A stretch of 32,000 bases of DNA, taken from NCBI RefSeq assembly GCF_000829235.1, contig NZ_AP012549.1, positions 990,001 to 1,022,000 of the forward strand, in the 5' to 3' direction. Under the pieces are notes generated by a model that saw nothing but the letters and a program-made list of their open reading frames with translations, was not told the origin of the DNA and ran no database searches. Position 1 is the stretch's first letter. The number at the start of each line of letters is the position of its first letter. Source of the DNA: a cyanobacterium endosymbiont of Epithemia turgida isolate EtSB Lake Yunoko (lineage in GTDB: Bacteria > Cyanobacteriota > Cyanobacteriia > Cyanobacteriales > Microcystaceae). Positions 8,554 through 28,549 of the stretch are shown piece after piece. The translations under genes and the position numbers were made by a program.

Positions 8554-8822
8554 TTAAATAAATCATATCAATTGTTGATGATAATAGTTGTTAAGACCTA
8601 ATTTTTAGTGAGTGATCGCAAAGTAACTGTTATATTATTTAAAGTTACGTCGGCTTTTAGCAAAGAAAAGTTGCTCTGCGCGATAAACTAGCTTATAGTC
8701 TAATTCAGACTTTTTAAAAACCCTAAAACAATATTACTCCTTAATGTACAAGAAATTTGTCTCGTAGATAGTTTTCTAGATTGCCAGTAAGGATACCTTT
8801 TAGATATGCTAAACGTATGGAC

Positions 8823-8863
8823 GCCAAGACCCCTACAATGAAAAGTCTTGTAGGGGTCTTGGC
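8823..8863. repeat. Perfect 16-bp hairpin (9-nt loop), relatively GC-rich, 93 nt upstream of the psaC remnant
   Basis: gccaagacccctacaa / tgaaaagtc / ttgtaggggtcttggc, read directly from the sequence. Confidence 0.8.
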
Positions 8864-8955
8864 CGATGAATGAGGAAGCTGCTTCACATACGGACTATCA
8901 GTCTTGAGTGAGATGTGTCATGAAAGAAATCACTCGGCTAAAAAGACGACAATCA

Positions 8956-9208
8956 ATGTCTCATAACGTCGTAAAAATTTACACCATTTGTATCGGCTGC
9001 ACTCAATGTGTTAGGGCTTCTCCCCTTAATGTTTTGAAGATAGATAGTCTTTTGGGATAGCTGCGGGGTTGGTCAGATTGCTTGATCTTCTTATATAGAA
9101 AACTGTATTGATTGTAAGCGACATCAAACAACCTGCCCGACTAATTTCTTTAGTGTATGTGTTTATTTATAGACATACACTGCTCTTGGTATGGGTTTTG
9201 CCTACTTA
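8956..9208 (+). pseudogene. psaC: Photosystem I iron-sulfur centre subunit PsaC, pseudogene
   Basis: The ATG frame gives [35 protein letters not shown] frame shifted by one nt gives [51 protein letters not shown]. Both are collinear with canonical PsaC ([80 protein letters not shown]). Lesions are one frameshift, two in-frame stops, cluster-ligand Cys->Ser (ACP->ASP), Cys->His (KRCE->KRHQ), and stop TAA->TTA. Confidence 0.92.
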
Positions 9209-9271
9209 GGATGTCTTAATTTAAGTGTGCAGCATACTAATTTTTTTATAAAATCTGAGCAACTTTCCCAC

Positions 9272-9307
9272 ATAAAGGGAGCAGTTTGCTCCCTTTATTG
9301 TATTTTT
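9272..9307 (+). terminator. Rho-independent terminator downstream of the psaC remnant
   Basis: Perfect 11-bp stem ataaagggagc / agttt / gctccctttat, followed by tgtattttt. Confidence 0.6.
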
Positions 9308-9359
9308 AAAAAAATTAATTGTAGTGGGGTAAACGATGATGAACCTACAGGTTAAAAAA

Positions 9360-9872
9360 TAAGTTGAAGCAGAGACAGTCCCTGATTTTTATGTAACGAT
9401 TTCGATAATTTTATTACGTTACTCTAATTGCAATAAAGGTTATACGCAAATTATCGTTACTTTTCGTCGTGGAACACTCCCTTCAAACAAAGTATATGAT
9501 AATGACATCAAAATGGAATAAGAGTGGTTCTCACTCTTATTCCATTTTGATAAACAATTGTATTAAGTTAATCTACTGTCTTGCAGATAGATTGCCGCCT
9601 GTTTTTTCTAAAGTTAAGATTAACTAAAAACAGTTCAACAAGTGAAAAAACTTGAACACAGACAGGGAATAAACAAAAACAAACTGTTTAATTTCATAAT
9701 CTTTAGCTAAATTAACTAAGTTTTTGATTCTTTGATAATCTATCTGATACGGTCCCGTCGTATCAAAACTGGAGCTAACTCCAGTAATATTAAGTAGTAT
9801 GTTGCAATCAGTAACAGCCTCGATTAGACTTTCTGATTTGAGAACATCACTAACGACCAACTCAACTTCAGA
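9360..9872 (-). pseudogene. NAD(P)-binding NmrA/PF13460-like atypical SDR, truncated and frameshifted pseudogene
   Basis: Minus-strand fragments lie in three frames. They are EVELVVSDVLKSESLIEAVTDCNILLNITG...QIDYQRIKNLVNLAKDYEIKQFVFVYSLSVFKFFHLLN (ORF 9624..9860), KKQAAIYLQDSRLT*Y, and LFEGSVPRRKVTIICV*PLLQLE*RNKIIEIV. All are collinear with the ~220-aa cyanobacterial/plant NAD(P)H-binding family. The N-terminal GxxGxxG part is missing beyond the palindrome at 9852-9894. Confidence 0.6.
9508..9550. repeat. Perfect 19-bp hairpin (5-nt loop) inside the NmrA-like pseudogene
   Basis: tcaaaatggaataagagtg / gttct / cactcttattccattttga. Confidence 0.85.
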
Positions 9873-9894
9873 GGGAGAAGTTGAGTTGGTCGTT
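9852..9894. repeat. Perfect 18-bp hairpin (7-nt loop) at the 5' truncation point of the NmrA-like pseudogene
   Basis: aacgaccaactcaacttc / agaggga / gaagttgagttggtcgtt. Arm 9852-9869 encodes EVELVV on the minus strand. The other arm is its inverted copy. Confidence 0.85.
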
Positions 9895-10186
9895 TATAAA
9901 ATTTTTACTAAGATTTTAACTAAAATTTAATGACTGGTCAGTTATTGAATAATATATCCCCTTATCTATACTGCTACTAATGTTTTCATCTGTCTCTACT
10001 TAAGTCGTTTGTCTGACTGGACTGATTTAATTCATATTTATCAGTCTAAATACTTAAAACCTGATAAGGTTGCCTAGTATTTTTCTTTAAGATAAAATAC
10101 AAAGATAATTGGTTATTCCTTTTTTCTAAAAAAAGAGAGCCTTTCAACAGATTAAATTAACTTTAAATGTTCTATAAAGGTTTGCT

Positions 10187-10897
10187 ATGGAATGCCAATG
10201 GACTGAGAATAACTCAACTGATGTATCTCAACTATCAGACCCCCTTGCGAAAAATCCGATTTTTTTCCAGACGCAGTTTGTTGGCTATATGGAAATGTAC
10301 AGTAATCAGCAGACAGTAACTAACTATCTCAATGCTCATCAAGAATGGTTTTGTCGTTGTGCTAAACCGATGAAAACTGAAGCTATGGGAAAAAATGGTT
10401 ATATCTTATCGGTAGGACGATTTGTTTTTTTGGGATATAAAGTGGAGCCCAAAATAGCTGTGGTTTTATTGTCATCGCAAGATGGAGTTTACCTAATGAA
10501 TACTATTCCTCTTCCTGAAAAATCTGATTTAGGTTATGAGATAGATTATAAGGCCTCTATGCAATTAGAGGAAGTTTCTGCCAAACTAGCAGGAGAGGGA
10601 ATAGGAAAAGCTTATAAAAAGCAAGGCTTATCTCAGTTACCAGACGTGATTACTAAAATTCGATGGCAATTACAGATAAATGTTGCTATCCAATTTCCTA
10701 AATTTATTCACAAGTTATCTTCAATAGTAATTCAAAAAACTGGCAATCACTTTATAAGTCAGATTATTCACCAAATTTCTCCTAATCTAACTTATAAAGT
10801 TCAAAAAGACTTTCATACTTGTCTTCATCTTCCCGTACCTCCGAAAAGTAGCCGCTACTTAAAGAAAGTTATAGTTTCTAGAGAAGACGCTATCTAA
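10187..10897 (+). CDS. Conserved cyanobacterial hypothetical protein (tentatively DUF1997-like)
   Basis: 236-aa intact ORF with higher GC than its flanks. The pattern F..QF.G.M..Y....V..YL..H..W...C..PMK.E..G.NGY.L..GRF.F.GY.VEPKI..VL recalls DUF1997-type proteins. The family assignment is from memory only. Confidence 0.55.
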   Translation: MECQWTENNSTDVSQLSDPLAKNPIFFQTQFVGYMEMYSNQQTVTNYLNAHQEWFCRCAKPMKTEAMGKNGYILSVGRFVFLGYKVEPKIAVVLLSSQDGVYLMNTIPLPEKSDLGYEIDYKASMQLEEVSAKLAGEGIGKAYKKQGLSQLPDVITKIRWQLQINVAIQFPKFIHKLSSIVIQKTGNHFISQIIHQISPNLTYKVQKDFHTCLHLPVPPKSSRYLKKVIVSREDAI

Positions 10898-11645: not shown

Positions 11646-11700
11646 ATAAACATAGTTAAGTATATAGTCTATTTTAGACTATATACTTAACTATGTTTAT
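11646..11700. repeat. Perfect 26-bp hairpin (3-nt loop), the longest palindrome in the window
   Basis: ataaacatagttaagtatatagtcta / ttt / tagactatatacttaactatgtttat. The 13-mer taaacatagttaa also occurs as a direct copy at 11589-11601. Confidence 0.9.
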
Positions 11701-13633: not shown

Positions 13634-14449
13634 CTAGAGAGAAGTTGTGCCTGTTCCTTTAAACATAAACCAAGAGAGGAAAAAATTAACAACAAATACA
13701 GCTAATAAAGCTGTTACAACTGCTGTCGTCGTGGACTGTCCTACCCCCTTAGCTCCCCCCGTAGTAGTCAAACCCCAACTACAACCAATCACCGCAATTA
13801 AACCCCCAAAAACAATTGATTTAATAATCGAAGTCAATAAATCCCAAAGCTCAAGAAAATTACGGGCAGATTTTAAAAAAACTACTGGAGAGATATCGTA
13901 TAAACTATCAGCAATTAATAACCCCCCGGCCATCCCAGTCATCAAGGAAAGAAGATTTAAAACTGGCAACATCATACAACAGGCTAAGACACGAGGAACC
14001 ACTAAGTAATCGATAGGGTCAGTTTTCAGCATATAAAGAGCATCAATTTGCTCCGTTACGCGCATTGTTCCGATTTCGGCTGCAAAAGCTGATCCCACCC
14101 GTCCTGCCACCACCACAGCTGTGAGAACGGGAGCTAATTCTCTTGTTAACGCTAAGGATAAAACGCCGCCAACGGTACTGGCTGCGCCAAAATGAATAAA
14201 TTCCCTAGCTACTTGAATTGTAAATACCATTCCTACAAATCCTGCCGTCACTAAAGCAATTGTTAGGGACTCAGGTCCAACCACACTCATTTGTTCAAGG
14301 GTGTTGCGTCGGTGGATTCTGCTTTTCAGCAAGTGAAAAAATACTTGTCCTCCTAAGAAGATGGCTGCTAGTAACCGCTCAAACCATACAGCAAAACCGC
14401 GACGGGTACTTGTCTGGTTAGTCATTGACTTCCTATCCTGTGAATTCAT
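13634..14449 (-). CDS. mlaE: MlaE/TGD1-family ABC transporter permease (lipid transport)
   Basis: Multi-TM protein with MlaE-typical blocks: QM..VGP.SL.IALVTAGFVGMVFTIQ, ELAPVLTAVVVAGRVGSAFAAEIGTMRVTEQIDAL and DP..YLV.PRVLA. The ORF track begins at a TTG (14470). I prefer the ATG at 14449, and the ATG at 14425 is also possible. Confidence 0.85.
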   Translation of the reverse strand: MNSQDRKSMTNQTSTRRGFAVWFERLLAAIFLGGQVFFHLLKSRIHRRNTLEQMSVVGPESLTIALVTAGFVGMVFTIQVAREFIHFGAASTVGGVLSLALTRELAPVLTAVVVAGRVGSAFAAEIGTMRVTEQIDALYMLKTDPIDYLVVPRVLACCMMLPVLNLLSLMTGMAGGLLIADSLYDISPVVFLKSARNFLELWDLLTSIIKSIVFGGLIAVIGCSWGLTTTGGAKGVGQSTTTAVVTALLAVFVVNFFLSWFMFKGTGTTSL

Positions 14450-19433: not shown

Positions 19434-19486
19434 AATAATTATTTTCTATGTGAAGAACAATAGCTCTCACATAGAAAATAATTATT
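19434..19486. repeat. Perfect 20-bp hairpin (13-nt loop), ~290 nt upstream of the carbamoyltransferase start
   Basis: aataattattttctatgtga / agaacaatagctc / tcacatagaaaataattatt. Confidence 0.85.
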
Positions 19487-19964: not shown

Positions 19965-20153
19965 ATGACTAATTTTAATCAATATGAAAGAAAATCTGGT
20001 TTCATCGCCTACGCTGAAACTTTGAATGTCCGTCTAGCGATAATTGATTTTGTTGCTGCCTTGATCACTGAGTTAGTCACCGCTCAAGGAGTTCTCCATT
20101 TACAGAGTTTGCTTGAAATTCTTAGTTTGCGTCCTATTAATCTCATTGTTTGA
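19965..20153 (+). CDS. High-light-inducible (Hlip/CAB-like) protein homologue, divergent and possibly decaying
   Basis: 62 aa from ATG 19965: MTNFNQYERKSGFIAYAETLNVRLAIIDFVAALITELVTAQGVLHL.... Compare the Hlip core FGF...AE..NGRLAM.GF.....E...GQGVL. E, N and R are kept, but F->S, NGR->NVR and GF->DF, and there is an atypical C-terminal extension. Confidence 0.5.
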   Translation: MTNFNQYERKSGFIAYAETLNVRLAIIDFVAALITELVTAQGVLHLQSLLEILSLRPINLIV

Positions 20154-20184
20154 CTGGGTTCTCCCAGTCAAACAATGAGATTAA
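20137..20184. terminator. Perfect 22-bp hairpin (4-nt loop) between convergent hli-like ORF and sigA; likely bidirectional terminator
   Basis: ttaatctcattgtttgactggg / ttct / cccagtcaaacaatgagattaa. The left arm covers the last hli codons and its TGA (20151-20153). The right arm ends 5 nt before the sigA stop (20190). Confidence 0.6.
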
Positions 20185-20189
20185 TTTTA

Positions 20190-21329
20190 CTAGCGGACAT
20201 ATTCTTTGAGAATACTATTGCGATTAGGATGTCGCAATTTCCGTAAGGCCTTAGCTTCGATTTGACGAATCCGCTCGCGAGTGACATTAAAGATTTGTCC
20301 AATTTCCTCTAAGGTTTTCATGCGTCCGTCATCTAAGCCATAACGTAGCCGGAGAACATCCCGTTCTCGTGGACTTAAGGTATCGAGAACATTTTCTAAA
20401 TCTTCCCGCAGTAGATTTTTAGAAACTTCATCTTCTGGATTTTCTCCATCAGCTTCAATAAAATCTCCCAAGCGGGAGTCTTCTTCCTTACCAATAGGGG
20501 TTTCTAGTGAAATAGGTAATTGGGCTGATTTAGCAATAAAACGAAGCTTCTCGATGGTCATTTCCATACGTGTAGCAATTTCTTCTTCAGTAGGTTTACG
20601 GCGCATTTCTTGGGAAAGAATCTTAGTAGTTTTTTTTATTCTAGAAATGGTTTCGTAAAGATGAACTGGAAGGCGAATGGTACGCGATTGATCGGCAATT
20701 GCTCTAGTAATAGCTTGACGAATCCACCAAGTAGCGTAGGTCGAGAATTTATAACCCTTTTCGTGGTCAAATTTTTCGGCTGCTCGAATTAAGCCCAGAG
20801 AGCCTTCTTGAATCAAATCCTGGAAAGATAGTCCCCTATTCATATATTTTTTAGCAATAGAAACCACCAGACGTAGGTTAGAATGAACCATTTTGTCCTT
20901 AGCTCTACGTCCTAAAAAGAGACGGCGTTGGAAGGCATGCCAATCGATATTGACGGCCTCTGCCCATTCCTTCTCAGTGGGGAAGCGTCCCATGTGTTCA
21001 CTAAGTTGTTCTCGAATTCGTTCCAATTCAAGAAGATCAGCAATTTTACGAGCCAATTCAATTTCTTCTTCAGCACGCAAGAGTCGAATACGACCAATTT
21101 CTTGAAGATAAACCCGAATTGAATCCTCTGTGTAAGGTTTTTTCTTACTTTGAGCGCGACGGCGAGAAGCACTTAGTTTTCGGGTATTTTTCCCTTCTGG
21201 TCCAGTTAGTCCCTCATCAAGTACCACATCATCAGCCGATGCTTGTATGGCTTCATCATCATCGGGGATGAAGAATCCCACATCAATCTGAGGTTCAGTA
21301 AGGGTTAATAGCTCATTAGCCTGCGTCAT
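20190..21329 (-). CDS. sigA: RNA polymerase principal (group 1) sigma factor
   Basis: Carries region 1.2-4.2 hallmarks: [85 protein letters not shown], and the helix-turn-helix [31 protein letters not shown] place the start at ATG 21329 (MTQANELL, preceded by aaggag) rather than the GTG at 21359. Confidence 0.92.
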
Positions 21330-21739
21330 GCCGTTTTCCTCTTGCTCCTTGAAGTGCACAACTAGAAGATAGGGTGTGATAGTAGAATTTACGAATCCAA
21401 CCTCCCTAAAGTAGACTTATCTGAGAGTGATTCGTAAGGTTTCTTGGGAAAAAGCAGTTCGAACTGGCTTGCTTGGGGTTGACTATCATAAGAACTATGA
21501 GTCTGAAGCTACCAGTTTGGAAAGTTCCCAAGAACAAAGTCCGGGGTCAAAAAAATTCAAGACCTCTCCGATTGTAGCCTCGATTACCAAGAATCGGGTA
21601 AGGTTTTTGTTTTAATTGCACAATATCATTTAAGATTTCGGATAGTGTTGAAGAACACTGGATAAGAGATAACTGGACATTTAGATTTAATTAGGTGAAG
21701 ACATGGTTAATGGAGGTCATTAACAAACATATCTCGAGC

Positions 21740-21771
21740 GAAGAATTGCGTTGTTATCAACGCAATTCTTC
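21740..21771. other. Perfect 14-bp hairpin in the long sigA upstream region
   Basis: gaagaattgcgttg / ttat / caacgcaattcttc. Function unknown. Confidence 0.5.
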
Positions 21772-22247: not shown

Positions 22248-22286
22248 TTAAAAAAAGCTTTTAGTGTTAACAACACTAAAAGCTTT
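22248..22286 (-). terminator. Rho-independent terminator of the crtE/PAP2 operon
   Basis: Perfect 15-bp stem aaagcttttagtgtt / aac / aacactaaaagcttt. On the minus strand it runs into a U-tract, the complement of A7 at 22250-22256. It lies 67 nt downstream of the PAP2 stop. Confidence 0.7.
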
Positions 22287-28222: not shown

Positions 28223-28273
28223 TAGTACTCAGCTAAATAGATTAATGTAAATTATCTATTTAGCTGAGTACTA
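28223..28273. repeat. Perfect 20-bp hairpin (11-nt loop) in an AT-rich desert
   Basis: tagtactcagctaaatagat / taatgtaaatt / atctatttagctgagtacta. Confidence 0.85.
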
Positions 28274-28511: not shown

Positions 28512-28549
28512 CATAAAAAATAATTGTAGTGAAACAATTATTTTTTATG
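28512..28549. repeat. Perfect 16-bp A/T-rich hairpin (6-nt loop) in an AT-rich desert
   Basis: cataaaaaataattgt / agtgaa / acaattattttttatg. Confidence 0.8.

Follow-up and report, generated by a model that had tools for sequence, protein, structure and literature searches.

Two perfect hairpins that lie inside a dead PF13460 gene of the Epithemia turgida spheroid body (diazoplast), a nitrogen-fixing endosymbiont of a diatom, are very probably scars of quasi-palindrome correction by template switching in this endosymbiont lineage. The window analysed here comprises 32,000 nt (C1:990001–1022000) of the closed E. turgida spheroid-body genome (G000; 2,794,318 bp, 33.4% G+C), and positions below refer to this window unless prefixed with C1. 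The locus was anchored by the DUF1997 gene (10187–10897, plus strand; Pfam match and anchor search), the intact divergent neighbour of the pseudogene, and was compared in a six-way alignment of G000, the sister endosymbionts G003 (the closest relative), G006 (the Rhopalodia gibberula spheroid body, 3,020,309 bp) and G001, and two free-living relatives with an intact orthologue, Cyanothece sp. PCC 8801 (G007; 4,679,413 bp) and G002. Hairpin densities were compared among five separately assembled endosymbiont genomes (G000, G003, G006, G001 and G004).

Two perfect hairpins in a PF13460 pseudogene

On the minus strand of the window lie the remains of a PF13460 NAD(P)H-binding (NmrA/Ycf39-like) gene, identified by a Pfam match (E = 2.8e-5) and by syntenic orthologues, in agreement with a preliminary description of this DNA. 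Alignment with the intact orthologues places its ATG at 9989 and its former stop at 9365. Both free-living relatives possess an intact PF13460 gene of 209–210 amino acids at the same place, divergent from the DUF1997 gene, and the three sister endosymbionts carry a pseudogene at the orthologous position. In the six-way alignment, collinearity between the G000 pseudogene and the intact gene extends from ATG to stop; the pseudogene contains nine stops in the reference frame and four indels. The four endosymbionts have several lesions in common: 9 nt are deleted from the GxxGxxG region, the frame is shifted by +1, and codons 19 and 130 have become stops. The gene was therefore already dead in their common ancestor. 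Given that both hairpins occur in G000 only and are missing from every sister genome aligned, they were not its killers. The pseudogene had initially been thought to end at the second hairpin; as it runs from 9989 to 9365, both hairpins are internal. The sole terminator-like call within 8600–10300 (9272–9298; ATAAAGGGAGCA gtt TGCTCCCTTTAT followed by a T-run) sits just past the 3′ end of the pseudogene and is partly kept in G001 and G003.

Hairpin 2 (9852–9894) has arms of 18 nt (9852–9869 and 9877–9894) that are 100% complementary and enclose a 7-nt loop, with a DNA fold of −20.2 kcal/mol (z = −10.3; 0 of 200 shuffles were as good). Its left arm (AACGACCAACTCAACTTC) is the donor, consisting of ancestral coding sequence (EVELVV on the minus strand), as had been recognized before, with an identity of 1.00 to G003; the loop (AGAGGGA, 9870–9876) is not inverted relative to that of the relatives. 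The right arm reads GAAGTTGAGTTGGTCGTT in G000 and GAAGTTTTCCTGCCTGTT in G003, and has been overwritten in the tract 9883–9891, where seven differences from G003 are found within 9 nt with no indel and a length change of 0 (5–6 substitutions after polarizing with G001, G006 and the free-living sequences). Each right-arm change is the Watson–Crick partner of the left arm; by our own arithmetic, at least seven changes in 9 nt that are all complementary have a chance of approximately 2.5e-9 given the 11% divergence of the flanks. The ancestor already had a 6-bp core (AACTTC/GAAGTT) and a distal AAC/GTT, and the relatives are paired at 11, 11 and 9 of the 18 positions (11 in G003).

The right arm had been described as an inverted copy that replaces the upstream gene body. 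A literal inverted duplication of this kind, in which fold-back priming after a break inserts a copy of the EVELVV segment over that gene body, does predict a second arm that is an exact inverted copy of coding sequence, and is nonetheless extremely unlikely: the alignment contains neither insertion nor loss, the right arm sits on the ancestral ‘TAKEIL’ codons and keeps 11 of its 18 ancestral bases, and past this arm the gene continues collinearly for its N-terminal 95 nt, up to the ATG at 9989. What happened to the right arm was the overwriting of about 9 nt in place.

Hairpin 1 is likewise real and perfect, but is slightly longer than first reported (19 bp at 9508–9550): its arms (9507–9526 and 9532–9551) are 20 nt long, 100% complementary and separated by a 5-nt loop, with a DNA fold of −20.2 kcal/mol (z = −9.9; 0 of 200 shuffles as good). 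The right arm is positioned on the ancestral ‘VRPGGLKN’ codons, consistent with the earlier placement of this hairpin at an RPGGL-type segment. The inner 7 nt of this arm (CACTCTT) are ancestral, and its outer tract (approximately 9539–9549) was overwritten with the left-arm complement, involving a 1-nt deletion and about five substitutions relative to G003 (CACTCTTAAGTCCATCAGAAT); here G003 has AAGTCCATCAGAAT and G000 has -ATTCCATTTTGAT, the exact complement of the left arm. The left arm, on the ancestral ‘SDPILM’ codons, is mostly ancestral and bears two G000 changes (9521 C>A and 9526 A>G) that now pair with the ancestral CACTCTT of the inner right arm. Hairpin 1 is a mosaic in which both arms served as donor; the expectation that one arm is ancestral and the other its copy holds for hairpin 2 and not for hairpin 1, where both arms changed. 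As the loop (GTTCT, 9527–9531) is not inverted relative to the relatives (GTCCT and GTCTT), the mosaic implies at least two events with opposite donor arms. The length change of −1 nt is fixed by the donor arm. Of the 20 positions, 12 are paired in G003 (with a core of GAGT../..ACTC), 8 in G001 and 8 in G006.

The orthologous segments of the two hairpins fold no better than shuffled sequence (−4.1 and −4.8 kcal/mol in G003, −2.2 and −4.8 kcal/mol in G002). Collinearity of both arms with ancestral sequence, which the preliminary description had regarded as incompatible with its reading, holds for their position and not for their sequence.

Perfect hairpins across the window, the genome and its sisters

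Ten perfect hairpins with arms of at least 13 nt are present in the window, and each was aligned to the three sister genomes. Nine of them became perfect in G000 only, from ancestral inverted repeats that were shorter or imperfect, with length changes of −9 to +3 nt; several are mosaics and three have reverse-complemented loops. At 11646–11700 (26-nt arms), G003 has only a 10-bp core and the left arm was overwritten from the right. At 19434–19486 (20-nt arms), overwriting of the right arm added 3 nt, and all three relatives carry the 13-nt loop in reverse-complemented form. The hairpin at 20136–20185 (23-nt arms), located 4 nt past the stop of a sigma-70 gene (20190–21359, minus strand), has a 24-nt perfect complement in place of a 33-nt imperfect ancestral right side (−9 nt). 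The hairpin at 21740–21771 (14-nt arms) is a mosaic with both arms as donors and a loop inverted from ATAA to TTAT; at 22254–22286 (15-nt arms) overwriting of the right arm removed 2 nt, and a single base of the left arm changed towards the right arm; the hairpin at 28223–28273 (20-nt arms) is a mosaic according to the sister-genome alignment; and at 28512–28549 (16-nt arms) it was the left arm that was overwritten, with inversion of the loop from TTCACT to AGTGAA. The ancestral structure at 20136–20185 is two-tiered and imperfect, with an inner stem (ACTGGGTT/AACCCAGT) and a T-run in all three sisters; a template switch at this site may have remodelled a real terminator. The G003 orthologue of the region around 11600 has a perfect 18-nt hairpin of its own (TACCAAAGCTTAATGATT / AATCATTAAGCTTTGGTA; G003 locus 13855–13892), of which G000 keeps only the left-arm homologue and is without approximately 54 nt of the G003 sequence; either an event in G003 added length, or G000 underwent a deletion.

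The GC-rich hairpin at 8823–8863 (16-nt arms, GCCAAGACCCCTACAA / TTGTAGGGGTCTTGGC) is also found in G003 and G001 as a conserved structure, in which one pair has changed in a compensatory manner in G001 (A-T to G-C). It carries the GTAGGGG motif of a repeated palindrome family in PCC 8801 (GTAGGGGTCAACGG and similar), and is probably either a retained functional element or a relic of this family. A 47-bp palindrome beyond the window (C1:1311810–1311856), GC-rich in its core (AGTAGAGTGGGCA T TGCCCACTCTACT), has been retained by all four endosymbionts, with covariation at several positions of its arms, and is a candidate functional palindrome (for example, a protein-binding site or RNA stem). 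If the hairpins of the pseudogene were likewise selected elements—terminators, stems for RNA stability or processing, or protein-binding palindromes—that arose through compensatory change, they would belong with this conserved minority with covarying arms and with the slight excess of G000 hairpins found within 10 nt after a stop codon (4.1% versus 1.1%). We consider such an origin very unlikely. The two hairpins are inside a dead gene, lack a T-run, were not called as terminators and are missing from all sister genomes, and their bases were replaced several at a time rather than by stepwise compensation; the best Rfam scores were 21–29 bits against thresholds of 41–90 (E ≥ 0.09), with no match near threshold, and 88% of G000 hairpins are not near gene ends. 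The lineage specificity of the two hairpins bears out the earlier view that they are not conserved regulatory elements.

The whole G000 genome contains 534 perfect hairpins (arms of 14–34 nt, loop of ≤20 nt), against 1–2 expected from whole-genome block shuffles. Most (494; 92%) are outside open reading frames (ORFs) of at least 100 amino acids, with a density of 38 per 100 kb as opposed to 1.5 per 100 kb in ORFs, and intact ORFs are depleted of hairpins 25-fold. The proposal that palindrome formation destroys genes in this genome is not supported, given this depletion and the prior death of the PF13460 gene. No sequence family was found among the 534 hairpins, the sequences of which are unrelated. 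A dispersed mobile palindromic repeat (MITE, REP or RPE-like), for which the repeated palindromes of PCC 8801 offer a precedent, is so improbable as to be almost negligible, because the arms of both pseudogene hairpins are unique in the G000 genome at up to two mismatches, the 534 hairpins form no family and the orthologous loci show no insertion. In 20-nt windows, perfect stems (164) outnumber those with one mismatch (64), and stems with 1–3 mismatches are also well above chance; a surplus of perfect over one-mismatch stems together with an excess of decayed ones fits birth as perfect hairpins and later decay.

We further compared G000 hairpins with the sister genomes over 380 kb that are syntenic in three sisters and contain 76 hairpins (64 alignable, 60 of them to G003). 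Only one of the 60 is perfect in G003 and 45 are less than 75% paired there. The worse-conserved arm has an identity of 0.59, compared with 0.76 for shifted controls (p = 5e-18) and 0.80 for the flanks. Relatives are nevertheless paired at 0.61 of the homologous positions versus 0.28 in controls (p = 1.6e-41), and the ancestors were therefore quasi-palindromes. Turnover is similar in the reciprocal direction: only 5 of 42 G003 hairpins, 3 of 44 G006 hairpins and 2 of 46 G001 hairpins are perfect in G000. Two ancestral quasi-palindromes were each perfected independently, from opposite donor arms, in different genomes (G000 versus G003 at C1:1307266–1307310, and G000 and G001 versus G006 at C1:1043179–1043214). 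No bias was found in which arm was overwritten (17 versus 14), and there is thus no strand-specific signal; the weak cumulative GC skew does not allow replichores to be defined. Relative to G000, G006 and G001, G003 carries an inversion of about 90 kb (approximately C1:1,220,000–1,305,000 in G000).

Perfect hairpins with arms of at least 14 nt occur at 19 per 100 kb in G000 and at 11–24 per 100 kb in the first samples of G003, G006, G001 and G004 (15–19 for G003, G006 and G001 in 437-kb samples). Sequencing or assembly artefacts, such as the chimeric inverted junctions that whole-genome amplification can introduce, are exceedingly improbable in view of these similar densities in five separately assembled genomes. 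Some hairpins are common to several genomes and carry later changes, decayed stems with 1–3 mismatches are in large excess, and the overwritten tracts are short, in place and adjacent to a prior core stem, unlike chimeric joins.

Mechanism and rate of hairpin formation

The two hairpins display a prior imperfect repeat, clustered changes that raise complementarity, and a sequence and length set by the donor arm, all of which are features of template switching. Spacer inversion is found elsewhere (19434, 21740 and 28512; 3 of 15 decidable loops in the 380 kb) and not at these two hairpins. Arm homogenization combined with spacer inversion is the published signature of template switching (PMC8604942, PMC5941160, PMC8794818), and a corresponding signature is described for quasi-palindromes (PMC7202029). 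Lineage-specific templated copying between arms upholds the quasi-palindrome correction suggested in the preliminary description, and copying would have taken place during replication rather than through another route of arm-to-arm conversion.

In the proposed mechanism, DNA synthesis across the two weak inverted repeats would switch template, with the nascent strand using the opposite arm, whether its own or the one across the fork, as template for a short tract before returning. Each event overwrote in place about 9–11 nt, which became exactly complementary to the partner arm, and sequences paired at 11 of 18 and 12 of 20 positions were turned into perfect stems of 18 and 20 bp. These events postdate the split from the sequenced sister endosymbionts and struck a gene that was already dead. 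Longer stems fold more readily, and a site that has once been perfected should therefore be prone to further rounds; hairpins would grow and remain perfect until point mutations outpace correction. The process would act on all unconstrained DNA of G000, and independently in each sister endosymbiont, with selection clearing its products from working genes.

Arm-to-arm correction could also proceed without replication, if a hairpin or cruciform were extruded and its stem mismatches repaired in either direction, or if short-patch recombination took place between the arms. Cruciform correction or short-patch gene conversion would leave an identical scar, and the mosaics with both arms as donors (several hairpins, including hairpin 1), the lack of bias in the overwritten arm and the intact MutS are all compatible with this route. 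We nevertheless judge it distinctly unlikely: base-by-base mismatch repair cannot yield the reverse-complemented loops at 19434, 21740 and 28512, contiguous tracts with indels (for example, −9 nt at 20136) are not easily explained, and AT-rich cores of 4–7 bp would rarely extrude in duplex DNA. Template switching thus remains the preferred reading.

Free-living PCC 8801 has far fewer perfect hairpins, at approximately one-twentieth of the density in G000. Its values are 1.0 per 100 kb in the first 200 kb and 1.5 per 100 kb over all 600 kb sampled (9 hairpins). Per base outside ORFs, the values are 40.8 per 100 kb in G000 and 9.7 per 100 kb in PCC 8801, which points to a real excess in G000. 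These figures do not separate a higher rate from greater tolerance, because non-ORF DNA in a free-living genome is under stronger constraint and has a lower AT content. A single repeat family (GTAGGGG(T/C)...) accounts for all eight palindromes that PCC 8801 has outside ORFs, and for arms of at least 18 nt PCC 8801 has none, compared with 18 expected at the G000 rate (P = 1.5e-8). The excess in endosymbionts would reflect tolerance, a raised rate or both.

A raised rate is not explained by the loss of any of the repair and nuclease genes searched (SbcD, RecJ, xseA, MutS and RecQ). Every endosymbiont searched has intact SbcD, both RecJ paralogues, MutS1 and the main RecQ. The gene for the large subunit of ExoVII (xseA) is missing from all five endosymbiont genomes, and also from PCC 8801 and at least eight other free-living relatives searched; we rejected its loss as the cause of a raised rate, as the hairpin-poor PCC 8801 is without it too. 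The gene is patchy across this cyanobacterial family. A second RecQ-family helicase paralogue (approximately 480–516 amino acids, 318–330 bits) is present in the free-living G002, G005, G019 and G020 and absent from the endosymbionts G000, G001, G003 and G004, which is only a lead. The diazoplast lineage might have acquired a heritably raised rate of short-range template switching, beyond the effect of having more neutral DNA, for instance through loss of this helicase or a change in the replisome or in fork processing, a possibility that we regard as rather doubtful. If true, one of the main forces behind the turnover of spacers and pseudogenes in the transition from bacterium to organelle would be the writing of hairpins, along with the flipping of loops and re-perfection, and this would foreshadow the hairpin-rich non-coding DNA of plastids.

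Comparison with known systems

Template-switch mutagenesis has left an unusually clear natural trace at this locus: the rewritten copy can be set against the intact gene of the ancestor and the pseudogenes of three sisters, so that donor, recipient, tract length (approximately 9–11 nt) and order of events are visible. More broadly, five related endosymbiont genomes with hundreds of independent long hairpins each provide a near-neutral data set on hairpin birth, growth, loop flipping and decay, with which one can ask whether genome reduction raises template-switch mutation. For annotation, a long perfect stem in one of these genomes should usually be taken as debris of mutation and not as a regulator; for phylogenetics, multi-base template-switch events inflate apparent divergence.

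The template-switch model of quasi-palindrome mutation is said to go back to Ripley in 1982, and the Lovett laboratory reportedly developed quasi-palindrome reporters in Escherichia coli thyA and lacZ. As in quasi-palindrome mutation (PMC7202029), an imperfect repeat at the present locus was made perfect by clustered templated change with little or no change in length. In contrast to mutation in the E. coli reporters, we are dealing with fixed evolutionary events that have produced arms of 18–34 nt, hundreds of them per 2.8-Mb genome. The nucleases that restrain the process in E. coli offer no explanation: the genes for RecJ and SbcD are intact, and a hairpin-poor relative lacks ExoVII as well.

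Evolutionary studies of template switching have dealt with proteobacterial inverted repeats (Lavi et al. 2018; PMC5941160) and related events (Monttinen and Loytynoja 2022; PMC8794818), and arm homogenization with spacer inversion is known from yeast inverted repeats (PMC8604942). The G000 hairpins resemble these cases in that repeats were perfected, homogenization went in either direction, spacers were inverted and enrichment rises with arm length. Those systems, however, involve short repeats (mostly under 10–12 nt) or RNA genes, whereas the products in G000 are long, mostly non-functional, turn over quickly between sisters and are concentrated in the pseudogenes and spacers of a shrinking genome. 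Intrinsic (Rho-independent) terminators are also DNA-encoded stem–loops, and a few of the conserved window hairpins may be terminators; the two pseudogene hairpins differ in having AT-rich perfect stems of 18–20 bp, no T-run, a position inside a pseudogene and no conservation.

Small inversions associated with hairpins and inverted repeats in non-coding chloroplast DNA were reportedly described by Kelchner and Wendel in 1996. Palindromes in coding sequence are documented for Nematomorpha mitochondria (PMC6649704). Like these organelle-type genomes, G000 is rich in one-off hairpins with flipping loops, but it belongs to a young endosymbiont that fixes nitrogen, not to an ancient organelle, and its hairpins avoid coding sequence. 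Two spheroid-body genome papers later than that of 2014 (PMC4128115) make no mention of hairpins or palindromes, and none of the papers listed by a full-text search brings such structures together with diazoplasts or spheroid bodies; the scale of the process in this genome appears not to have been described before. The mechanism itself is already known. In this young, organelle-like genome it is its products that stand out, by their length, their number and their turnover.
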